Positions 1-9,054 of a stretch of 9,054 bases of DNA are shown piece after piece. Every line of letters begins with the position of its first letter. Positions within the stretch are counted from its first letter, which is position 1. This stretch comes from a virus (lineage: Duplodnaviria; Heunggongvirae; Uroviricota; Caudoviricetes), in IMG/VR virus record IMGVR_UViG_2778261179_000015, positions 1-9,054 of that record. One strand, given 5' to 3'. Position numbers and translations under genes: made by a program. The notes under the pieces are model-generated. The model did not search any database. It was not told where the DNA came from and saw nothing but the letters and a program-made list of their open reading frames with translations.

Positions 1-1239
1 ATGAGCAGCGCAATTCATAGACTTAGCGACACTCTTTTACGAAAATTAAGCGGATCACCAACCACAAAAAACGCCTTTTTTAATGACGGTGGCAATCTTA
101 GCGTAAGACATTCCACCAGCGGCCTGTTAACCTGGTATTTCACTTACAGGGCCGGAACTGGCAGGCAGGTATCACCGGAACGCCTGAGACTGGGCAACTA
201 TCCCGATCTGAGCCTGAAAGCAGCCAGGGAAAAAGCGGCACAGTGTCGCGCCTGGCTGGCGGAGGGGAAAAATCCACGCCATGAGCTTAATCACACAGTG
301 CAGGAAGCGTTAGCCCCCGTGACGGTTAAGGACGCGCTCACTTACTGGCTTGAGTCGTATGCGAAGGAAAAGCGCACTGACCACGAATCACTGAAAAGCC
401 GTATCAATAAGCACATAATCAGCCAGATTGGTGCTATGCCGCTGGATAAATGCGAGCTACGCCACTGGCTGGCCTGTTTTGACCAGCTTGCTAAGCGTAA
501 TCCGGTATCAGCCGGCTTTTTGTTGCAGGTATGCAAACAGGCGCTTAAGTACTGCCGTAAACGTCGCTACGCCGTCAGTAACGTTCTTGATGATATGGTC
601 GTAGGTGATGTGGGAAAAAAAGCAGAAATAAGCGAGCGAGTGCTAACAAACAAGGAGCTTGGCGAGCTACTCCGCGCACTGGATGAAAAAATTTTCCCGC
701 CGTACTACAGCGCTTTAATTCGCCTTCTGATTGTCTTCGGATGCCGTACCACTGAGCTAAGACGCTCCGAGGTTCGGGAATGGGATTTTAAAGAAATGCT
801 CTGGACTGTGCCGAAAGAACACAGCAAAACGAAGGTAGCAATATTCAGGCCAATACCGGAAGCGATCTTGCCGTTCGTCATGAAGCTGGTGGAGCAGAAC
901 AGGCACACGGGCTTATTGCTTGGAGAACTGAAAGGGCAATCATCCGTAGCAGAGTACGGAAGAACGGCACACAGACGCATTAATCAAGCCCCCTGGTCGT
1001 TGCACGACATCCGGCACACATTTACAACCATGCTGAACGATTTAGGCGTGGATCCGCATATTGTCGAACAGCTTACTGCCCACCAGATGCCAGGAATGCA
1101 ACGCGTCTATAACCACTCCCGTTATCTCGATGCAAAGCGTGACGCTCTTAATCTATGGGTAGACCGTCTCGAGCTTCTCCAGAACAATGATGAAAAAATC
1201 GTTGTTATGACCCCGCGAATTTACCCCCAAAATTCTTGA
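1..1239 (+). CDS. int: Tyrosine integrase, P4-type (N-terminal arm-binding domain plus catalytic domain)
   Basis: 412-aa ORF. The N-terminal segment (LTWYFTYRAGTGRQVSPERLRLGNYPDLSLKAAREKAAQCRAWLAEGKNP) matches the pattern of P4-family integrase N-terminal domains. The C-terminus carries the tyrosine-recombinase motifs HDIRHTF and VYNHSRYLD with the catalytic Tyr. The ATG sits at window position 1, so upstream att/tRNA context is not visible. Confidence 0.9.
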   Translation: MSSAIHRLSDTLLRKLSGSPTTKNAFFNDGGNLSVRHSTSGLLTWYFTYRAGTGRQVSPERLRLGNYPDLSLKAAREKAAQCRAWLAEGKNPRHELNHTVQEALAPVTVKDALTYWLESYAKEKRTDHESLKSRINKHIISQIGAMPLDKCELRHWLACFDQLAKRNPVSAGFLLQVCKQALKYCRKRRYAVSNVLDDMVVGDVGKKAEISERVLTNKELGELLRALDEKIFPPYYSALIRLLIVFGCRTTELRRSEVREWDFKEMLWTVPKEHSKTKVAIFRPIPEAILPFVMKLVEQNRHTGLLLGELKGQSSVAEYGRTAHRRINQAPWSLHDIRHTFTTMLNDLGVDPHIVEQLTAHQMPGMQRVYNHSRYLDAKRDALNLWVDRLELLQNNDEKIVVMTPRIYPQNS

Positions 1240-1280
1240 CAAATTACGGCTGTTTTTTCTTTAAGAGATTACAGCCGTGA

Positions 1281-1320
1281 ATAGATCTTAGAATATCGGG
1301 GAATATCTGCAAATATCTTC
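1281..1320. repeat. Tandem 10-bp direct repeats (RAATATC core) in the int-alpA intergenic region; possible regulator binding sites
   Basis: gaatatcggg / gaatatctgc / aaatatcttc at 1291, 1301 and 1311, preceded by a degenerate copy atagatctta at 1281. The 10-bp phasing puts the sites on one helix face. They lie in a 420-bp AT-rich intergenic region. Confidence 0.35.
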
Positions 1321-1660
1321 TCTTTATATGTGTCAACTATCGAAAAAAATTGAAATGTCTTCTTCTGAACTTTTATTCTCTGTTTCTTGATTGTTCCAAC
1401 ACTTGATGGTTTATCTATTTGTTTTTAATGAGATAATTCAAGCGTAATGCCAAGTAACGACATTTTTTGTTGCATCGCTTAAAAACTCGTGACACGATTT
1501 TAAACACTAACGAGCTTCTACGAACCTTAGCGAACAAAGCCTTTAGCAAGGTTGTGTTTTTAATTTAAGAGGTGAAAAAAGAATCTAAGTAATATCCGAT
1601 CTCATATATCTACAGCTAAGAGAAAAGTTTATATACGTAATTTTTTATGTAGGTTTTTGT

Positions 1661-1870
1661 ATGCGTGAAATAAATGAAGATCGCGTAATCCGTGAGGATG
1701 AATGTCGTAAGTTAACTGGAGTGTGTCGCACTACACGCTATGAACTGGAGAAAAAAGGGAATTTCCCGTCACGCCGTAATCTGGGCGGTCGTTCTGTAGG
1801 TTGGCTGCTGTCCGAGGTTATGGAATGGGTTAAAAGCCGGGATCGCATTAATTCAGGCAAGGCAGCGTAA
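1661..1870 (+). CDS. alpA: AlpA-family transcriptional regulator / excisionase-like HTH protein
   Basis: 69-aa ORF. The sequence ECRKLTGVCRTTRYELEKKGNFPSRRNLGGRSVGWLLSEVMEWV fits the AlpA (CP4-57 regulatory protein) HTH pattern, and its position just downstream of a P4-type integrase is typical. A weak SD (agg) lies 7 nt upstream of the ATG. Confidence 0.85.
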   Translation: MREINEDRVIREDECRKLTGVCRTTRYELEKKGNFPSRRNLGGRSVGWLLSEVMEWVKSRDRINSGKAA

Positions 1871-1885
1871 AGGGGGGCATATGAC

Positions 1886-1920
1886 ACATAAAACAAAGGC
1901 GACCCGGATCAGAGGTCGCC
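1886..1920 (-). terminator. Putative intrinsic terminator for the minus-strand RHH gene
   Basis: Perfect 7-bp stem GGCGACC (1898-1904) / GGTCGCC (1914-1920) with a 9-nt loop. On the minus strand it is followed by TTTGTTTTATGTG. It sits in the gap between the convergent alpA and RHH genes. Confidence 0.45.
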
Positions 1921-2011
1921 AGTGGGAATACACTAAACATAAGCCCAGCCATCATAGCGATTTGCTGGCTGGTGGGCAATGTGATCAGTGTGCTGGCTTG
2001 CTGGTTGGCTG

Positions 2012-2185
2012 TCAGCCTTTGGGCTCGATACCGCGCTGTTGTAATTCTTTGCGGAGTATTCGTTTAATCCAAGTAGCTAATGAGGTGTCGCCGTCTGCCT
2101 TGGCTGCTTCCTCAAGTTGCGCTCTAAATTCTTCTGGTAGTCGCATTTGGTATGGTGGCGATCGTTTCTCTAATGGTGTTGACAT
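2012..2185 (-). CDS. Arc/MetJ-type ribbon-helix-helix DNA-binding protein (putative element repressor)
   Basis: Hand-translated minus-strand ORF of 57 aa: MSTPLEKRSPPYQMRLPEEFRAQLEEAAKADGDTSLATWIKRILRKELQQRGIEPKG. It is below the length cutoff of the ORF track. The segment PYQMRLPEEFRAQLEEAAKADG has the beta-strand/helix signature of Arc-family RHH proteins. SD AAGGG lies 8 nt upstream, an in-frame stop lies immediately upstream of the ATG, and the start codon abuts a palindromic operator. Confidence 0.75.
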   Translation of the reverse strand: MSTPLEKRSPPYQMRLPEEFRAQLEEAAKADGDTSLATWIKRILRKELQQRGIEPKG

Positions 2186-2225
2186 GGTAATTACCCTTAA
2201 TTACTATAGTTACATGGTAATTACC
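2182..2225. promoter_or_regulatory. Divergent promoter/operator region: two copies of the palindrome GGTAATTACC in a 14-bp direct repeat, flanking the palindrome ACTATAGT
   Basis: ACATGGTAATTACC occurs at 2182-2195 and 2212-2225, 30 bp centre to centre. Each copy contains the perfect 10-bp palindrome GGTAATTACC. ACTATAGT (2203-2210) is itself palindromic and includes a TATAGT -10-like hexamer. TTACCATT half-site repeats follow at 2221-2240. The region lies between the RHH gene start and the downstream + operon. Confidence 0.55.
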
Positions 2226-2321
2226 ATTGTACTTACCATTACACAAAAAACAACGCCCCGCACTGTAGGAGCAGTAACGGGGCGTCTAACCACCAACGAT
2301 AGCAGAAGTATCGAGGTCGCT

Positions 2322-2525
2322 ATGAGAAATCATACCACACACCCGCAAGGGCGGGATTCGCACAACCTGAATAAATACATCTGGCGTTTTATCGCCCTGA
2401 GCACGGCACAACCGCGCGTGATTACCATTGAGGCCAGCAGCGAACAGGAAGCACGCCAGCAATCCCCGGCTGGCTGCGTGATGGTATTCGCCGCCCGTAT
2501 TCGTCAGGGGGTATGCCATGCCTGA
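2322..2525 (+). CDS. Small protein, possibly Icd-like (host cell division inhibitor family); first gene of the early/replication operon
   Basis: 68-aa ORF taken from the in-frame ATG at 2322 inside the 1881-2525 ORF-track entry. SD GAGG lies 5 nt upstream. Its stop overlaps the next start (ATGCCTGA). The family assignment is a recollection of small proteins annotated Icd-like beside alpA in P4-like prophages and was not verified. Confidence 0.45.
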   Translation: MRNHTTHPQGRDSHNLNKYIWRFIALSTAQPRVITIEASSEQEARQQSPAGCVMVFAARIRQGVCHA

Positions 2526-2838
2526 TATGTCAAATTACCAGTACCTGATTAATCCGCATTTTAACTGTGAGCATGATATTGCTAAAAAGGTTTATTCCGC
2601 TGCGGATGGGGCTACTGACAATATATCAATGGCTGTTGCGTCAATTGGTAGCCTGATGTGGCATGCGTCAGAAAATAAGGACTATGACGAAAAGGCTATG
2701 CGCATTGATATGGGTAATATCGGTTTGTTACTGGCAATGCTTGGGCAGTTTGATATTTCGTTACGGTGCACCATTGAAAATGCCACAGATGCATTAAATG
2801 CCATAAAGAAAGCGAATACTGATTCAAATCGGGGATAA
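2518..2838 (+). CDS. Hypothetical protein (106 aa), function unknown
   Basis: Strong SD AGGGGG 6 nt upstream. Translationally coupled to the upstream gene by an 8-nt overlap. No recognisable motif. Confidence 0.6.
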   Translation: MPDMSNYQYLINPHFNCEHDIAKKVYSAADGATDNISMAVASIGSLMWHASENKDYDEKAMRIDMGNIGLLLAMLGQFDISLRCTIENATDALNAIKKANTDSNRG

Positions 2839-2844
2839 ATAATC

Positions 2845-3144
2845 ATGAGAACATATTTATCTGGCTTGACTGCCAGCGGTTATGCACACCCCAAAATTAT
2901 CCCCGGCGCTATTTATCTGGATAAGAACGGTAACAGAGTAACGGTAAAAGAACTGATGTTTGACCGTGTGTATTTTATTCGTGATGGCTATTCATTTCAT
3001 AGTTCGCTGAACGTGGAGATCTTTATTAGCAGATTCAGGCGGGAAATCCCGCTTTCCAGAAATAACCATGTGTCACGTGTGGATGTGGATAAAAAACTAC
3101 AGGAACTGAAAAACATGATTGCCGCGTGGAGAGAGCAGAAATGA
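2845..3144 (+). CDS. Hypothetical protein (99 aa), function unknown
   Basis: SD GGGGA upstream. Its stop overlaps the replication gene start in an ATGA arrangement. No recognisable motif. Confidence 0.6.
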   Translation: MRTYLSGLTASGYAHPKIIPGAIYLDKNGNRVTVKELMFDRVYFIRDGYSFHSSLNVEIFISRFRREIPLSRNNHVSRVDVDKKLQELKNMIAAWREQK

Positions 3145-5264
3145 AAAAAGCGCCAAATTTAAAACACCAGCCGCGTGACAAAATGACGGAAGTCATCATT
3201 TTTGCGGGTAGTGATGCGTGGGCACATGCGAAACAGTGGCAGGAACAGGACGGGCGACTGGCTGGCGATAACGTGCCACCTGTCTGGCTTGGAGAGCAAC
3301 AACTTGCCGAACTGGACAACCTGCAAATCGTACCGGACGGACGCTATCGCGTGCGTCTCTATCAGGCGGGGTTATTGCGTCCGGGGCTTGTTAATACCAT
3401 CGGGCAGAAACTGGCAGTGGCAGGTGTCAGGGATGCTGATTATTACCCTGAAGGAATGCACAGCCAGAAACGGGAGAACTGGCGCGAATATCTGGAACGT
3501 GAACGGGCAGAGCAGGCGGAAAAGAAAAAGGTAGTTGAACTGCCTGTAAAGAAAAAAGAGCCATGCTATCAGGATGATGAATTAAAGCCCCGCGTTGAAA
3601 GTCGCGTCGATGGTGTTTTCTGGGTAACGCCCAAAGTGGATAAGCAGTCAGGCGAAATTATCCGGCCTGAGACGTGGTTATGTTCTCCGCTTGAACTACT
3701 GGGAACGGGGACGATCGGTAAAGAACATTACCGCGTGATGCGCTGGAAAAAATCAGCAAACCATGAAGTCATCACAATGGCGATCCCGTGTGGTGGCATT
3801 GGCGACCGTGACGGCTGGCGGTTACTTAAAGATCACGGGCTGAACGTGACAACCAACGGCAAATACAGGGCAATCCTGGCGGACTGGATGCAGTTAAGCG
3901 GAAGCCATGAGGAATGGCAGTTAAGCACAACAACGGGCTGGCATTTTGGCGCGTACATCATGCCGGACGGTTCGATCATTGGTGATTCTGAAAAACCGAT
4001 CCTGTTTACCGGAAAAAGCGCCGCGATTAACGGTTATTCCGTGGCGGGTACGGCGGAGGGCTGGCGCGAGAGTGTGGCGCGGCTGGCTGGCGGTAATGCC
4101 TCAATGATGCTGGGTGTGGCAACGTCACTGGCAGCGCCTTTAATTGGCCTTGTGGGTGCTGACGGCTTCGGGGTGCATCTTTTCGAACAGTCATCGGCAG
4201 GTAAGACCACCACGCAGAACATCGCATCAAGTTTATGGGGAGAGCCGGACGCACAACGGCTTACCTGGTACGGAACGGCGTTAGGTATCGCCAACGAGGC
4301 AGAGGCGCACAACGACGGGCTGTTACCCCTGGATGAAATAGGCCAGGCCGGAAACGCGCGGGAGGTGTCCACGTCAGCCTATACGTTGTTTAACGGCTCC
4401 GGGAAATTACAGGGGGCGAAGGACGGCGGCAACCGGGAGATAAAACACTGGCGCACGGTGGCAATCAGCACCGGAGAAATGGACGTTGAGACATTCCTCA
4501 AAACGGAGGGGATAAAAGTCAAAGCGGGGCAGCTTGTCCGCCTGCTTAACGTTCCGATGGAAAAAGCCACGCACTTTCACGAATACAGCACCGGAAAGGC
4601 GCACGCAGACGCGTTAAAGGATGCCTGGACAGAAAATCACGGGGCAGCGGGTCGTGAGTGGGTTAAATGGCTGGCAGGCCACCAGCAGGAGGCAAAGGAT
4701 ACGGTAAGGGAATGCCGCGAACGGTGGCGCAACCTGATACCGGAGAGCTACGGCGAGCAGGTCCACCGCGTGGGTGAGCGTTTCGCCATACTGGAGGCCG
4801 CGCTTGTGCTTTCCGGTCATGTAACTGGCTGGGCCGCGCAGGAATGCCGGGACGCAATACAGCATAACTTTAATGCCTGGGTGAAGGAGTTCGGCACGGG
4901 TAACAGGGAATTTAAACAGATGGTTGAACAGGCTGAGGCGTTTTTGTCGTCGTTCGGGTTCAGTCGATACCTTCCTTACCCAAACAGTGATGAACGTGAT
5001 TTACCGATTAAAGACCTTGCCGGATACAGAAAGGGGAGTATCAGAAATGAAGATGATGAGTTCCGTTTTTACACGTTTCCTCATGTGTTTGAGGGGGAGA
5101 TCGCACAGGGATTTAACCCGTCCCACTTTGCCCGCGCGTTGAGTGCTGCCGGAATGCTGGAAGCGGGTAACGATCGCCGTTACAAGAAAAAGGCTCTCGG
5201 CAAAATTGGGGGGAAGCAGCATGTTTTTTACGTGCTGATGTTCCAGCCTGAGGCAGAAGATTAA
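3141..5264 (+). CDS. Replication initiator, putative primase/helicase-type P-loop NTPase (Pri-Rep-like)
   Basis: About 707 aa from the ATG at 3141, with SD GGAGAG 7 nt upstream. The ORF track begins at a GTG at 3126. Walker A motif EQSSAGKTTTQN and Walker B-like motif GLLPLDEIG are present. Size, position after alpA and before an iteron array match satellite replication proteins. Confidence 0.8.
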   Translation: MKKAPNLKHQPRDKMTEVIIFAGSDAWAHAKQWQEQDGRLAGDNVPPVWLGEQQLAELDNLQIVPDGRYRVRLYQAGLLRPGLVNTIGQKLAVAGVRDADYYPEGMHSQKRENWREYLERERAEQAEKKKVVELPVKKKEPCYQDDELKPRVESRVDGVFWVTPKVDKQSGEIIRPETWLCSPLELLGTGTIGKEHYRVMRWKKSANHEVITMAIPCGGIGDRDGWRLLKDHGLNVTTNGKYRAILADWMQLSGSHEEWQLSTTTGWHFGAYIMPDGSIIGDSEKPILFTGKSAAINGYSVAGTAEGWRESVARLAGGNASMMLGVATSLAAPLIGLVGADGFGVHLFEQSSAGKTTTQNIASSLWGEPDAQRLTWYGTALGIANEAEAHNDGLLPLDEIGQAGNAREVSTSAYTLFNGSGKLQGAKDGGNREIKHWRTVAISTGEMDVETFLKTEGIKVKAGQLVRLLNVPMEKATHFHEYSTGKAHADALKDAWTENHGAAGREWVKWLAGHQQEAKDTVRECRERWRNLIPESYGEQVHRVGERFAILEAALVLSGHVTGWAAQECRDAIQHNFNAWVKEFGTGNREFKQMVEQAEAFLSSFGFSRYLPYPNSDERDLPIKDLAGYRKGSIRNEDDEFRFYTFPHVFEGEIAQGFNPSHFARALSAAGMLEAGNDRRYKKKALGKIGGKQHVFYVLMFQPEAED

Positions 5265-5287
5265 CCCCCTGTGTGAGGTGAAAAGTT

Positions 5288-5602
5288 GCGGGTTATGCGG
5301 GTTACTCTGTGTATAAGTGCATTAACTGCATGAATAAAAAGGAAATCAATAACCCGCACGTAACCCGCAAAACGGCAGTTATAACCCGCAAAAGTGCGAT
5401 TATAACCCGCAGATGAATAACAGGAAGTGACAGCAAACAGCCACGCGTAACCCGCAGAAAAAACCCCGTTTGCGGGTTATTTTGAGCATTTTGCGGGTTA
5501 CGCCACGGCTAAACAGTAAACAGTTAATTTTGTAATGTATTGATATTAAGGAATAAAAAATACTTAGCAAGCGAAGATAACCCGCTAACCCGCATAACCC
5601 GC
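5288..5602. repeat. Replication origin: array of about 12 iterons (R)TAACCCGC / GCGGGTTA(Y) flanking AT-rich segments
   Basis: GCGGGTTA orientation at 5288-5296, 5297-5305, 5472-5480 and 5493-5501. TAACCCGC orientation at 5349-5357, 5361-5368, 5381-5389, 5402-5410, 5447-5455, 5577-5585, 5586-5593 and 5594-5602. AT-rich stretches lie at 5505-5576 and 5607-5626. The array starts immediately downstream of the replication gene stop. Confidence 0.75.
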
Positions 5603-5644
5603 ACTGTTTTGTATATATATATACGAAAAATTGAGATCTGAACT

Positions 5645-5887
5645 ATGAAGGCAAACCGCAAACAACCACACTACCGCGCTATTGACCTTACAGAGCACTG
5701 GCTGAGAGTGGCGATAAAAATCATCGACCGAAACACGGGGGAAGGATATGCAAAAGCACATCCCGAACTGATAAGCGCATTCATGACAACGGCAGCTGCA
5801 AACTTTGCCACGTTGACAGAACGGGAGATTGCCGAAGCGGAACAGGTGACAACCATCAACGTTAAAACCGGAGAGCAGACAGCATGA
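5645..5887 (+). CDS. Hypothetical protein (80 aa), function unknown; co-operonic with ssb
   Basis: ORF directly after the origin. Its stop overlaps the ssb start (ATGA at 5884-5887). No recognisable motif. Confidence 0.5.
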   Translation: MKANRKQPHYRAIDLTEHWLRVAIKIIDRNTGEGYAKAHPELISAFMTTAAANFATLTEREIAEAEQVTTINVKTGEQTA

Positions 5888-6306
5888 CAGCACAGATAGC
5901 GGCTTACGGACGGCTGGTGGCTGACCCGCAGTTAAAGACCACCAGCAAGGGTACACAAATGGCGATGGCTAGTATGGCGGTCCCCCTTCCGTGCAGCCAG
6001 GCAGATGACGGAACGGCGATGATGTGGTTATCCGTCCTGGCGTTTGGCAGACAGGCCGACGCACTGGCAAAACACCACAAAGGCGAACTGGTGAGCGTGG
6101 CGGGTAACATGCAGGTAAGCCAGTGGACAGGCCAGAACGGCGAAACGCGGCAGGGCTGGCAGGTTATCGCAGACAGCGTGATCAGTGCGCGAACAGCGCG
6201 ACCGGGCGGCAAAAAAGGCCAGCAGGGGCAGGCCACTGACGCACTGAACAGGGCAAAACAACAGTCGGGGAATGATGATCCGTACGGCGATAATATACCG
6301 TTTTAA
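5884..6306 (+). CDS. ssb: Single-stranded DNA-binding protein (SSB) homolog
   Basis: 140 aa. The OB-fold core aligns by eye with E. coli SSB (IAAYGRLVADPQLKTTSKGTQMAMASMAV and WLSVLAFGRQADALAKHHKGELVSVAGNMQVSQWTGQNGETRQGWQV). A Gly/Gln-rich linker is followed by the C-terminal tip DDPYGDNIPF, resembling the SSB acidic tail ending DDDIPF. Confidence 0.8.
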   Translation: MTAQIAAYGRLVADPQLKTTSKGTQMAMASMAVPLPCSQADDGTAMMWLSVLAFGRQADALAKHHKGELVSVAGNMQVSQWTGQNGETRQGWQVIADSVISARTARPGGKKGQQGQATDALNRAKQQSGNDDPYGDNIPF

Positions 6307-6323
6307 ATTCTGCAAACAAAAAG

Positions 6324-6352
6324 ATGCCGGAAAAAAATAGATTTTCCGGCAT
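6324..6352. terminator. Stem-loop at the end of the ssb operon (possible terminator; the T-tract is on the minus strand)
   Basis: ATGCCGGAAAA (6324-6334) pairs with TTTTCCGGCAT (6342-6352) around a 7-nt loop. The plus strand has an A-tract before and no U-tract after. The minus strand has CTTTTTGTTTG after the stem. It separates the replication module from the capsid module. Confidence 0.4.
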
Positions 6353-6517
6353 GCTACATAAATCCCGACCAAAGGAAGTAAATACATTAACACGAATTAT
6401 CAGCACTGAAGTTGTCACGGCATATTTTATACAACATTGCACTTGGTTGCATGTATTCGCATAGCAGACATCGGTAATAGAATATATTCACAATTATTTG
6501 TAATGAATGTAAAGAGG

Positions 6518-7564
6518 ATGAGTATGGTTGACTTATATTCGCCTACACAGCTTGTGCAGGTGGCTAATGCTGAAGATGTGCAAAAAAAATTAAATGCGTT
6601 GTTTACCAGTTTGTTTTTCACTCGCTCGGTAATGTTTGAATCGAGAGACATTATTCTTGATACGATCGACGATCCAAATATCCCGATCGCGGCGTTTTGC
6701 TCTCCTATGGTGGGCAGTAAAGTTTCACGAGATGAGGGATACGAATCAAAAACAATTCGTCCAGGTTATATGAAGCCGAAAAGCAGCATTGATCCAAATA
6801 AGTTAGCTGTGCGCCCTGCTGGTGTGTCACCTGAGCAATACAATGCTTTTGGGGCGCGTAATATTAAAGTTAAACAGGCGATTGTAAATCAGGCTAAAGC
6901 TATTCGTGCACGTATTGAATGGCTTGCTGTTCAGGCAATCACAACGGGGAAAAATATCATTGAGGGCGATGGTATTGAACGTTATGAGCTGGACTGGAAT
7001 ATAAAACCACAAAATATCATCACTCAGTCTGGCGGTACTGAGTGGTCAGGTAAGGATAAAGAAACTTTTGATCCAAATGATGATATTGAGAGCTACGCAG
7101 AATTTAGTGAGGGCGTCACTAATATCATCATTATGGGTGGTAATGTATGGAAGAAATACCGTTCATTCAGAGCGATAAAAGAGGCTTTGGATACCCGTCG
7201 TGGTTCTAATTCCGAACTGGAAACGGCCCTTAAAGACCTTGGTGATTCGGTGAGTTTTAAAGGGTATATGGGCGATGTTGCGATTGTTGTTTACAGCGGG
7301 CGTTATACCGACGAGGACGGAACAGAAAAACATTTCCTTGATCCTGATTTGATGGTGCTTGGCAATACGGCTCTTCAGGGGATTGTCGCCTATGGCGGTA
7401 TTCAGGATCCGGAGCTAATCCGAATGGGGCTGACTAAAGCCGAACTTGCACCGAAAAACTATATTGTGCCTGGTGATCCGGCTATTGAATATGTGCAGAC
7501 ACATTCAGCACCACAGCCAATACCGGCCCGCATCAATCGTTTTGTTACCGTTCGCATTGGCTAA
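6518..7564 (+). CDS. Major capsid protein, phage lambda gpE-like (HK97-fold family)
   Basis: About 348 aa from MSMVDLYSPTQLVQ, which parallels the lambda gpE N-terminus MSMYTT. SD AAGAGG is immediately upstream. Extended similarity to recalled lambda gpE includes ITQSGGTEWS, KEALDTRRGSNSELETALKDLG and GDVAIVVYSG. The ORF track starts earlier at 6437, probably upstream of the true start. Confidence 0.85.
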   Translation: MSMVDLYSPTQLVQVANAEDVQKKLNALFTSLFFTRSVMFESRDIILDTIDDPNIPIAAFCSPMVGSKVSRDEGYESKTIRPGYMKPKSSIDPNKLAVRPAGVSPEQYNAFGARNIKVKQAIVNQAKAIRARIEWLAVQAITTGKNIIEGDGIERYELDWNIKPQNIITQSGGTEWSGKDKETFDPNDDIESYAEFSEGVTNIIIMGGNVWKKYRSFRAIKEALDTRRGSNSELETALKDLGDSVSFKGYMGDVAIVVYSGRYTDEDGTEKHFLDPDLMVLGNTALQGIVAYGGIQDPELIRMGLTKAELAPKNYIVPGDPAIEYVQTHSAPQPIPARINRFVTVRIG

Positions 7565-7573
7565 GGGGGAGCA

Positions 7574-7915
7574 ATGGCTACTCATTACACTGAACTCATG
7601 GCTGGCACTGAAGCACTGGTGACTACGCTGGGGATATTTTCAGCTAATAAAGGGGTAATTCCTGCATTTACGCCACTGATGCAGGAAGATGCAACAGGTG
7701 CACTGGTGGTATGGGATGGTTCGAGCGTAGGTAAAGCGGTTTATGTTTCCGCTGTACAAATCGACACAGCGAAAAAAACACAGGCACAGGTTTATAAGAC
7801 AGGTGTTTTAAATGTTGATGCTCTGAACTGGCCTGAGTCTGTAAAAGAACTGTCGGCAAAGGTTGCCGCGTTTGTTGGCTCAGGTATTTCTGTTCAGCCG
7901 CTGGCTCGTGTGTAA
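7574..7915 (+). CDS. Head decoration protein, phage lambda gpD-like
   Basis: 113 aa. The segment TPLMQEDATGALVVWDGSSVGKAVYVSAVQIDTAKKTQAQVYKTGVLNVDALNWPE parallels recalled lambda gpD (TPLMLDTSSRKLVAWDG...FYKSG...LWPE). SD AGGGGGA upstream; lies 10 nt after the capsid gene stop. Confidence 0.8.
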   Translation: MATHYTELMAGTEALVTTLGIFSANKGVIPAFTPLMQEDATGALVVWDGSSVGKAVYVSAVQIDTAKKTQAQVYKTGVLNVDALNWPESVKELSAKVAAFVGSGISVQPLARV

Positions 7916-7926
7916 AGGGGGATACA

Positions 7927-8310
7927 ATGCAGAATCATTACAATGACCTTAAGCCAATTGCCGAAATGATGTATCCGGATCCAGCAGTAGAGGAATTAAA
8001 GGCTATTGCTGACAAAATGCGTTTAAGTGAACGCCTTGTTGATATGAATCAGGTGATGGAACTTACTACCCTTAGCCGTCGCACATTGCTAAACCTTGAG
8101 GCTCGCGGAGAGTTCCCCGAACGCGTACAGGTTACGGAAGGGCGTAAGGCCTGGTATTTAAGTGAAGTGATCGACTGGATAAACAATATTCCTCGATCTT
8201 CTGAATATTGCCGCGTACCTGTCCCAAAAAAGCCAGATGCGGCGCTATGCCTCAAGATTGAGCGTGTACGTCGCAATGCACGGGATGGTCGCTATAAGTT
8301 GATTGGTTGA
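7927..8310 (+). CDS. AlpA-type HTH domain protein (127 aa) with N- and C-terminal extensions; putative regulator or DNA-specificity factor
   Basis: The central segment MNQVMELTTLSRRTLLNLEARGEFPERVQVTEGRKAWYLSEVIDWINN matches the AlpA/excisionase-type HTH pattern and resembles the alpA product at 1661-1870. SD GGGGG 5 nt upstream. The gene ends about 25 bp before the cos core. Confidence 0.7.
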   Translation: MQNHYNDLKPIAEMMYPDPAVEELKAIADKMRLSERLVDMNQVMELTTLSRRTLLNLEARGEFPERVQVTEGRKAWYLSEVIDWINNIPRSSEYCRVPVPKKPDAALCLKIERVRRNARDGRYKLIG

Positions 8311-8335
8311 TGAAATTAGGGCCCGTTCTGGCTGG

Positions 8336-8400
8336 CGGGTCCTTTCCGGCGATCCGGTAGGCTACGGGGCGGCGACCTCGCGGGTTTTCGCTATTTATGA
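8336..8400. other. Lambda-type cohesive end site (cosQ-cosN), with the 12-nt cohesive-end sequence GGGCGGCGACCT at 8367-8378
   Basis: Window 8336-8366 (CGGGTCCTTTCCGGCGATCCGGTAGGCTACG) matches the recalled right end of the lambda genome (CGGGTCCTTTCCGGTGATCCGACAGGTTACG) with 4 mismatches. Window 8367-8400 (GGGCGGCGACCTCGCGGGTTTTCGCTATTTATGA) matches the first 34 nt of the lambda genome exactly. Similarity is lost downstream of 8400, in the presumptive cosB (8401-8500). Confidence 0.85.
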
Positions 8401-8511
8401 GCCTTTTTCGGGTGCTGGTGGTGGTTTTGTTGTTCGCTCTATCTCTATGAATAAAAAGGAAAAGATAAAGCCAATACACCAACCTGAAACATTACTTAAG
8501 TGGGGATATTG

Positions 8512-9054
8512 ATGAAATCGCACCTGATGAACAAAAAAAACATGGCGCAAAGCTGCCGTGTAAGTGCGACAGCGTTCGACAAGTGGGGAGTGACTCCCGT
8601 TGAACGTAAAGGCCGCGAGGCGTTTTATGATGTTGCCAGCGTAATAGACAATCGGGTTAGCAATGCAATTAACCAGATTACAGACGACAAAGGCGAGATT
8701 GATAATGATGAGCTTTTGCGAGTCAGGATCAGATTGCTGACAGCGCAGGCGGAGGCGCAGGAGCTTAAAAACGAGCGCGAACGCGGCGATGTGATTAGTA
8801 CGGAATTTTGTATATATGCGCTTTCAAAACTGGCGAGTCAGATTTCTTCAATCATGGGCAGCCTGCCGCTTACTATGCAAAGGAGCTTCCCACAGATGAC
8901 CCCCGCCATGCTGGATGGCCTGAAAAAAGAAGTTGTCAGAGCCTGTAACGCATGCACAAAACTTGATGAAAACATCCCGCGAATGCTGTCCGATTATCTG
9001 ATGGAAACTACCGGAAATGTGCCTGATAAGTTTCAGCCGGATAAAGACAAGTAA
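8512..9054 (+). CDS. terS: Terminase small subunit, phage lambda Nu1-like
   Basis: About 180 aa from the ATG at 8512, with SD GGGGA upstream. Alternative starts exist at 8527 and 8542, and the ORF track begins at a GTG at 8500. The C-terminal two thirds (RLLTAQAEAQELKNERERGDVISTEFCIYALSKLASQISSIMGSLPLTMQRSFP...LDENIPRMLSDYLMETTG) parallels recalled lambda Nu1 (RLTRAQADAQELKNARDSAEVVETAFCTFVLSRIAGEIASILDGLPLSVQRRFP...LDELIPGLLSEYIEQSG). The N-terminal DNA-binding region is more diverged. The gene lies immediately downstream of cos, as in lambda. Confidence 0.85.
   Translation: MKSHLMNKKNMAQSCRVSATAFDKWGVTPVERKGREAFYDVASVIDNRVSNAINQITDDKGEIDNDELLRVRIRLLTAQAEAQELKNERERGDVISTEFCIYALSKLASQISSIMGSLPLTMQRSFPQMTPAMLDGLKKEVVRACNACTKLDENIPRMLSDYLMETTGNVPDKFQPDKDK

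Follow-up and report, generated by a model that had tools for sequence, protein, structure and literature searches.

The stretch of DNA analysed here (positions 1 to 9,054 of IMG/VR virus record IMGVR_UViG_2778261179_000015; hereafter the window, 9,054 nucleotides) opens with an integrase gene, closes with a small terminase gene and encodes homologues of two phage head proteins, which raises the question of what kind of element it belongs to. It could be mistaken for a new lineage of capsid-encoding satellites or for a defective prophage, and its correct filing is the main outcome of this work. The window very probably comprises the body, from int to terS, of an Escherichia coli phage-inducible chromosomal island (PICI) of the classical Gram-negative kind, a member of the group at the cspD-clpS site that encodes a small terminase (TerS) and is typified by EcCIIHE3034 and EcCI18098. 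What is new here is mosaic membership only: the kind of element, its attachment (att) site, its architecture, its homologues of capsid and decoration proteins and the subgroup that bears TerS have all been published previously (PMC6092414, Table S1 and text; PMC10085698; PMC10111431).

Identity and boundaries of the island

Genes were listed from six-frame open reading frames (ORFs) in combination with profile searches (Pfam, PHROG and NCBIfam), and the starts of three of them were corrected relative to the ORF list (capsid gene to 6524 from 6437, rep to 3141 and terS to 8512). The genes and sites named in a preliminary description of the window (int, alpA, a repressor, an early operon, an iteron origin, ssb, capsid genes, cos and terS) were all recovered in the order given there, with the integrase at the left end and every family-supported gene on the plus strand except that of a 57-residue repressor candidate (Table 1). 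A Logan contig matches the first 8,392 bp with 100% identity, two complete genomes match the window with 98.2% identity over 97% of its length, and at least 80% of it was found in 15 of 5,426 complete E. coli genomes.

The complete island was delimited in GCA_012754895.1, in which the corresponding locus (L009:6861-15914) differs from the window at 153 positions, and measures 10,332 bp. Comparison of L009 with the empty site of MG1655 yielded an att core of 11 bp, ATGATAGTTAT, within a repeat that extends imperfectly to about 22 bp. The att site is intergenic, being located between cspD and clpS, and overlaps the stop codon of yljB, a small gene. The genes flanking the island are macB-cspD-yljB to its left and clpS-clpA to its right; attL is 173 bp upstream of the int start and attR about 1.08 kb past the terS stop. 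A tRNA or another conserved locus had been put forward as the probable insertion site; the actual site is not a tRNA, and ARAGORN detected no tRNA in the window. The stretch between terS and attR holds a single 96-residue ORF, the sole gene of the island outside the window, which is 70-74% identical to the terminal ORF of EcCIIHE3034 and of EcCICFT073, the prototype Gram-negative cos PICI.

No match to lambda A, W, B, C, Nu3, FI or FII was obtained by tblastn in the whole 10,332-bp island, which contains no large terminase (terL), portal, protease, scaffold, tail or lysis genes and is therefore a satellite and not a prophage, as had been proposed. A contiguous set of tail, lysis and terL genes, by which a complete prophage would be recognised, is not present. 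In its size (about 8-15 kb for PICIs), its lack of tail, lysis, portal and terL genes, its use of an att site occupied by other PICIs and its own replication module with an iteron origin directly 3' of rep, the island conforms to Gram-negative PICIs. The comparison with satellite classification schemes that the preliminary description had recommended was made with the published SatelliteFinder PICI model (de Sousa et al. 2023), which consists of an integrase, a regulator, a primase-replicase, a capsid component and a small terminase, with a median span of 9.5 kb from int to the last core gene (PMC10085698). The window has all five core components over 9.05 kb and none of the forbidden tail, holin or portal genes, and judged on the component list of the model, that scheme would class it as a complete (Type A) PICI. 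In a separate survey, a capsid gene was present in 21 of 29 reference Gram-negative PICIs.

The suggestion that the window represents a candidate new satellite lineage was not borne out, as EcCIIHE3034 and EcCI18098 had been published with the same site, att core and TerS. EcCIIHE3034 (NC_017628.1:920272-930825, 10.5 kb) and EcCI18098 (10.8 kb) appear in Table S1 of Fillol-Salom et al. 2018 with the att core ATGATAGTTAT at cspD-clpS, and, unlike EcCICFT073 and EcCIO42, both encode TerS (PMC6092414). EcCIIHE3034 resembles the window in gene order, capsid, decoration, cos, 180-residue TerS, att core, site and size class (10.5-10.8 against 10.3 kb). It differs in four respects: its Rep is of the D5_N/DUF5906 type instead of DUF927, only the N-terminal 160 residues or so being related (about 60%); its alleles of the capsid and decoration genes reach no more than 54-55% identity; an unrelated 137-residue ORF takes the place of the 127-residue AlpA-like gene of the window; and a YlcI/YnfO regulator stands where the window has a ribbon-helix-helix repressor candidate.

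The integrase itself is 95% identical to that of EcCIIHE3034, 78% to that of EcCICFT073 and 24% to that of P4, so that its earlier designation as P4-type holds for the domain architecture and not for close relatedness. Many genomes carry an identical Int protein at the same cspD-clpS site. Among them are O157-type genomes (L003-L008, e.g. L003:10001-19475) with a capsid-less cargo of a D5_N/DUF5906 primase, PerC, a ProQ-like protein and a Nu1-type TerS, and the combination of the same Int with different cargo shows that modules reassort freely at this site. The closest phage integrase, at 48% identity, comes from LR881103.1, a 16.5-kb record labelled as an induced prophage, whose size is suggestive of a satellite submitted under the name of a phage.

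cos site and small terminase

The cos block is nearly identical to that of lambda and aligns with it without gaps from about -30 to +34, including an exact match to lambda cosN (GGGCGGCGACCT) between the AlpA-like gene and terS, and many lambdoid phages match the core over 66 bp with 95.5% identity. When the window was compared with 50,697 phage records using megablast, this core (8335-8412) was the only DNA in common with lambda-like phages, one other match being found over 80 bp (5540-5619) to an unannotated 2.2-kb record. Because the cosQ-cosN core (66-78 bp) is the only DNA shared with lambda-like phages, the island appears to mimic only what the helper large terminase (TerL) must cut and to supply its own specificity subunit. 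Beyond the core, a putative TerS site, GGTGGTGGTTTTGTTGTT, was located around 8417-8434 in the island-specific cosB, spanning the positions equivalent to lambda R3 (bp 48-65 after cosN, 8414-8431), and terS begins 145 nt after cosN.

TerS is 84% identical to that of EcCIIHE3034, 46% to N15 gp1, its closest phage relative, and 35% to lambda Nu1 over the full length. The likeness to N15 gp1 resides mainly in the N-terminal winged-helix domain, while with Nu1 the C-terminal half is best conserved; the PF07471 match covers positions 78-161 of the 164-position Nu1 model and includes the reported TerL-binding region of the lambda protein. A sequence search of the PDB with TerS returned neither Nu1 nor RppC, the homology to Nu1 having been established by direct BLASTP. 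On these alignments, the protein is a lambda Nu1-type small terminase with an N-terminal winged helix and a predicted C-terminal TerL-binding region, encoded beside cos.

Among the loci collected, islands with an N15-like TerS DNA-binding domain always have a cosB of the form GGTGGTGG..TTGTTGTT and a distance of 145-150 nt from cosN to the terS start codon. In O157 islands the DNA-binding domain is lambda/21-like, cosB is lambda-like with three R-like repeats and the distance is 210 nt, and the C-terminal 90 residues of their TerS are 96% identical to those of the window. The O157-type genomes are themselves divided, L003-L007 having a 194-residue TerS with lambda/21-like DNA-binding domain and cosB, and L008 the window-type 180-residue TerS and cosB. 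Because the two halves of TerS behave independently across loci, the DNA-binding domain can be said to travel with cosB and the C-terminal domain to vary separately, which is what would be expected of an adaptor whose one end reads satellite DNA and whose other end docks with a protein of the helper. TerS-type cos PICIs have so far not been dissected experimentally, and the co-variation of TerS domain and cosB together with the near-constant C-terminus provides a testable model of packaging specificity. At the R3-equivalent position (8414-8437), the window cosB reads GGTGGTGG and EcCICFT073 cos1 (L015, about 41606-41625) has the complement CCACCACCACC at a nearly equal distance from cosN; this complementarity may be due to chance or may reflect a common recognition motif in opposite orientation.

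The route established for EcCICFT073 was considered as an alternative, in which an Rpp-like island protein (144-153 residues, with a winged helix-turn-helix (wHTH) domain and a dimerisation helix and without the TerL-binding C-terminus) heterodimerises with the helper TerS, the annotated terS serving solely to interfere with the helper. The window shares its overall architecture and cosQ-cosN with EcCICFT073 and has a second wHTH protein adjoining cos. However, neither TerS nor this 127-residue AlpA-like protein, which also lacks similarity to c1501, aligned with RppA using BLASTP, TerS retains the Nu1 C-terminal region that is missing in Rpp proteins (PMC9026076), and its DNA-binding domain co-varies with cosB. 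An Rpp-like mechanism is thus improbable, and direct use of the helper TerL by the island TerS is preferred.

Capsid and decoration homologues

Capsid genes of its own had been attributed to the element, which is correct for the pair of gpE-like and gpD-like genes, whereas it lacks a portal, a protease, a scaffold, connectors and terL. The capsid homologue is 42% identical to lambda E and 55% to c1499 of EcCICFT073, the decoration homologue 38% to lambda D and 54% to c1500, and no phage homologue of the capsid protein reached 60% identity. Together with the AlpA-like gene that follows them, the two genes recur as a trio at 64-86% identity in Kluyvera, Superficieibacter, Cedecea and Kosakonia; the 127-residue AlpA-like protein is 64-72% identical in L020-L023 and is linked to the window-type capsid allele. 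Against these four other genera, the capsid gene gave values of 0.07-0.13 for the proportion of non-synonymous differences (pN) and 0.70-0.78 for that of synonymous differences (pS), and capsid and decoration genes together gave pN values of 0.07-0.20 and pS values of 0.62-0.79 (synonymous sites near saturation), with a dN/dS of about 0.07-0.12 where computable. Because non-synonymous differences are few in comparison with near-saturated synonymous sites, both genes are maintained as proteins, and to judge from these values the pair is under strong purifying selection. The homologues are thus strongly conserved although no phenotype has been found for them in EcCICFT073.

The same evidence bears on the possibility that the window is the remnant of a decaying lambdoid prophage in which int, a handful of early genes, E, D, cos and Nu1 have survived, and not part of an autonomous satellite lineage. 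E, D, Nu1 and cos are indeed lambda-type, and the RefSeq annotation of such regions is generic. Yet DNA similarity to lambda-like phages is restricted to the cos core (the one other match among the 50,697 records being the 80-bp one to the unannotated record noted above), all phage homologues of the capsid protein and TerS are below 60% identity, the order E then D is opposite to that of lambda, and the replicon is PICI-type (a DUF927 helicase related to PDB 8TCH, with iterons) and not lambda O/P. Precise att repeats, an architecture and size that are equal in several genera and the strong purifying selection also argue against decay, leaving a prophage remnant very improbable. A capsid-forming PICI (cfPICI), which assembles heads itself and borrows nothing but tails from the helper, would account for the encoded major capsid, decoration and small terminase proteins and for the purifying selection on both structural genes, but the components that separate cfPICIs from PICIs are portal, protease/scaffold, head-tail adaptor/connector, HNH and terL (PMC10085698; bioRxiv 2022.09.08.507074), of which lambda-type terL, adaptor, portal and protease were unmatched anywhere in the island (HNH was not searched directly) and for which no unassigned ORF is large enough, making this the least credible of the readings considered.

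Within a classical PICI, the gpE-like and gpD-like proteins could co-assemble with helper E, form a satellite shell on the helper portal and scaffold, or interfere with the helper. The second of these possibilities can be extended into a speculative and rather unlikely proposal, in which the pair, mounted on helper portal, scaffold and protease, would specify a chimeric or smaller satellite shell and make the island an intermediate between PICI and cfPICI, and the full-length TerS, whose DNA-binding domain and cosB are exchangeable, would directly engage the helper TerL as a second route of cos hijacking beside Rpp. Selection across five genera, co-inheritance of the capsid, decoration and AlpA-like genes and the identity of 60% or less to phage homologues are compatible with it. 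EcCICFT073 is packaged in phage-sized capsids, and in tests with lambda and phi80 its homologous genes gave no phenotype and only phage-sized DNA was observed.

Repressor candidate and early promoter

The putative early promoter (TTGACA-17-TACTAT), which faces the early operon, is overlain by the palindrome ATGGTAATTACCAT in two to three copies; the -35 hexamer and the start codon of the divergent 57-residue repressor candidate overlap in every allele examined. L009 carries at this position an allele of equal length that is 46% identical and has different putative operators, and L022 an allele that is 67% identical and is paired with TTGTAATTACAA palindromes. Repressor alleles in L009, L020, L022 and L023 co-vary with the neighbouring palindromes, and the residues of the beta-strand vary with the operator sequence. 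The exchanged unit corresponds to 2006-2290 of the window, L009:8866-9150, L022:6067-6320 and L023:5799-6030. An invertible segment at 2006-2290 was ruled out as the cause of the difference from L009, which is an allelic replacement of the repressor/operator region. Such a swap of repressor and operator as a unit, between islands that otherwise differ little, is the pattern of an immunity module. In L001, EcCICFT073 and EcCIIHE3034, another regulatory module, around a YlcI/YnfO family protein, is found here.

The 2018 study left undecided whether Gram-negative PICIs possess a repressor (PMC6092414). The 57-residue ribbon-helix-helix protein is a candidate for such a global repressor, and its co-variation with early-promoter operators makes it a concrete one for Gram-negative PICIs.

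Proposed life cycle

A life cycle can be proposed by analogy with EcCICFT073. An induced or infecting lambda-like helper would switch on alpA, and AlpA would then bring about excision, with expression of the early operon. Rep would unwind the iteron origin and the island would replicate into concatemers, after which the island TerS would bind the island-specific cosB through its N15-like winged-helix domain and recruit the helper large terminase, through its Nu1-like C-terminal region, to the lambda-identical cosQ-cosN. Island DNA instead of phage DNA would thereby be cut and packaged into heads and tails built by the helper. The helper TerL would be used directly, whereas EcCICFT073 converts the helper TerS with Rpp. 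Four copies of the island amount to 41.3 kb, or about 85% of the length of lambda, and a concatemer of this size would be accommodated by a lambda head of full size. That the island depends on a helper of the lambda type is plausible.

Several observations weigh against the assignment or against parts of this scheme. EcCIIHE3034 and EcCI18098 were transferred at very low frequency from their native strains (PMC6092414, Table 1), and no efficient helper is documented in the literature for the TerS-encoding cspD-clpS subgroup. The N15-like cosB motif lies about 9 bp farther from cosN than does N15 R3, and cos spacing is critical in lambda (PMC9026076). Deletion of the capsid or decoration homologue of EcCICFT073 left transfer and interference unchanged. 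No primase domain was detected in the protein that had been described as Pri-Rep, a name of which only one half is therefore borne out. The assignment of the repressor candidate to the ribbon-helix-helix fold is built on weak profile matches, the Pfam Arc match (E=0.0057) being under the cut-off and that to AmrZ being weak.

Comparison with known satellites

EcCICFT073 (NC_004431.1:1,377,930-1,388,654, equivalent to L015:31931-42655) is syntenic with the window throughout and has in common with it the gpE-like c1499, the gpD-like c1500, the cosQ-cosN core, the DUF4222/RgdR gene, SSB and a terminal ORF of 93-96 residues. It differs in its ycfD-phoQ site, its RppA-mediated hijacking of the helper TerS, the lack of a TerS of its own, another cosB, the presence of PerC, a D5_N/DUF5906 primase and a 137-residue c1501-type ORF 5' of cos.

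Islands of Cedecea and Kosakonia belonging to the helper-embedded PICIs (11capE type; PMC10111431) contain the same capsid, decoration and AlpA-like module, at the identities given above for the trio. In these loci (L022:3375-13400 and L023:3080-13700), the island is located between a lambda-like D and gene E, E being matched over 262-264 of 341 residues, an arrangement that points to lambda-like phages as helpers of the window-type capsid allele. L022 and L023 qualify as helper-embedded; this was rejected for the island of the window, which is chromosomal, lies between cspD and clpS and not in a late gene of a helper, and has a different integrase (42% identity).

Staphylococcus aureus pathogenicity islands (SaPIs) offer parallels in a satellite TerS that redirects the helper TerL to satellite DNA (pac SaPIs), in a satellite homologue of the helper capsid protein (Ccm of the cos island SaPIbov5) and in a Rep helicase related to the 'pathogenicity island protein' 8TCH. 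They are set apart from the island by its lambda-type cos packaging in place of headful packaging and by AlpA in place of Stl regulation, and capsid-size redirection has not been demonstrated for the E. coli gpE homologues. P4 is similar in size, in its arm-type tyrosine integrase, in its Vis/AlpA regulator (45%) and in cos packaging by the helper; however, alpha primase, sid, psu, delta, epsilon and cI are missing from the whole island, and the helper is expected to be lambda-like and not P2-like. A P4-like satellite was also rejected using tblastn with P4 proteins, which matched Int (24%) and Vis (45%) only, sid, psu, delta, epsilon/ash and alpha being absent.

Gene content and minor features

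The coordinates of all features are collected in Table 1.

Table 1. Genes and sites of the window, in order of position (+, rightward; -, leftward).
Feature	Position	Strand	Evidence
Tyrosine integrase, arm-binding N-terminal domain	1-1239	+	PF13356 (Arm-DNA-bind_3) and PF00589 (Phage_integrase); PHROG 1
int-alpA intergenic region, AT-rich (about 33-39% GC)	1240-1660		Composition
AlpA activator/excisionase-type regulator	1661-1870	+	PF05930 E=2.9e-16
Terminator-like hairpin downstream of the leftward repressor gene	1898-1920	-	Consensus scan only
57-residue ribbon-helix-helix (Arc-like) repressor candidate, divergent from early operon	2012-2185	-	PHROG 228 E=3e-7
Early promoter, rightward, best sigma-70-like of the window	2179-2207	+	Promoter scan
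Palindromic putative operators ATGGTAATTACC(AT)	2184-2195, 2214-2227, 2229-2239		Overlap promoter region 2179-2240
Conserved two-hairpin leader upstream of Icd-like gene	2253-2285 and 2292-2317	+	RNAalifold
Icd-like small protein, 67 residues, first early-operon gene	2322-2525	+	NCBIfam NF033153 E=1.7e-19
orf106, 106-residue protein	2518-2838	+	phrog_15327 E=9.5e-72
DUF4222 protein, distant RgdR-family member	2845-3144	+	PF13973 E=7e-17
Rep, replication initiator/helicase, DUF927 core with PICI-type N-terminal domain, 707 residues	3141-5264	+	PF06048 E=2.5e-48; PHROG 1139 E=1.9e-181
Replication origin, iterons in both orientations around AT-rich segment (~5505-5570)	5287-5603		Repeat scan
80-residue conserved PICI protein	5645-5887	+	phrog_1231 E=7e-49
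SSB, single-stranded DNA-binding protein	5884-6306	+	PF00436 E=1.7e-15
Lambda gpE-type major capsid protein homologue	6524-7564	+	PF03864 E=3.8e-41
Lambda gpD-type head decoration protein homologue	7574-7915	+	PF02924 E=4e-15
Second AlpA-family wHTH protein, 127 residues	7927-8310	+	PF05930 E=1.3e-8; PHROG 2790 E=2.4e-48; PDB 8C3T (AlpA regulator) E=8e-11
cos core	8337-8400	+	cosQ-like GGGTCCT 8337-8343; cosN 8367-8378; 22 more bp identical to lambda
Island-specific cosB	8401-8511	+	Diverges from lambda, N15 and EcCICFT073 cos1 past +35
Nu1-type small terminase, full length, 180 residues	8512-9054	+	PF07471 E=1.2e-21, residues 68-151; PHROG 57 E=1.9e-50

Two long ORFs that are recognised by gene callers and PHROGs were set aside. 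The 214-residue ORF at 1881-2525 is an upstream extension of the 67-residue Icd-like gene over the promoter region and probably an artefact, and the 69-residue ORF at 8303-8512 (phrog_11159) spans cosQ-cosN and is probably spurious. No defence genes were identified by PADLOC in the eight ORFs scanned (small ORFs, Rep and the 96-residue ORF past terS), and no Rfam family matched in the window at E<=1.

The AT-rich region between int and alpA is presumed to contain the alpA promoter and a helper-responsive control region, a function assigned from work on EcCICFT073 (PMC6092414). AlpA is 98.6% identical to AlpA of EcCIIHE3034 and 45% to P4 Vis. In the leader, 20 base pairs were predicted by RNAalifold from eight PICIs (2253-2317), with compensatory changes in 7 of them. 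Its location 5' of the icd-like gene resembles that of the P1 c4-icd-ant and P4 CI RNA systems; homology to a P1 C4-like or P4 CI-like RNA was unsupported in the Rfam search.

The early genes are co-directional, with ends that overlap or abut. The Icd-like protein is 97% identical to its EcCICFT073 homologue and 94% to that of EcCIIHE3034, and orf106 gave no match in Pfam, NCBIfam or PADLOC. The DUF4222 protein is 35% identical to CFT073 c1493 (RgdR; PMC3378721) and lacks the RGD motif at residues 20-22. RgdR (ECs1581/c1493) is a regulator of the enterocyte effacement locus (LEE) and type III secretion that is encoded by all E. coli PICIs; because of the low identity and the missing motif, its virulence-regulatory activity may not apply to the protein of the window.

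Rep matches PDB 8TCH, annotated as 'Pathogenicity island protein' (E=1e-14), and the SCCmec Cch helicase 5DGK, and its N-terminal 160 residues are 62% identical to EcCICFT073 Pri-Rep. The origin contains 12 exact copies of the iteron TAACCCGCA and one copy with a single mismatch; in a scan of the whole window allowing up to one mismatch, 14 matches were found against 2.24 expected, a number reached in 0 of 200 shuffles. An origin directly 3' of rep is the published organisation of PICI origins (PMC6092414). Downstream of it, the 80-residue protein is 92% identical to its homologues in EcCICFT073 and EcCIIHE3034, and SSB is 89% identical to that of EcCIIHE3034.

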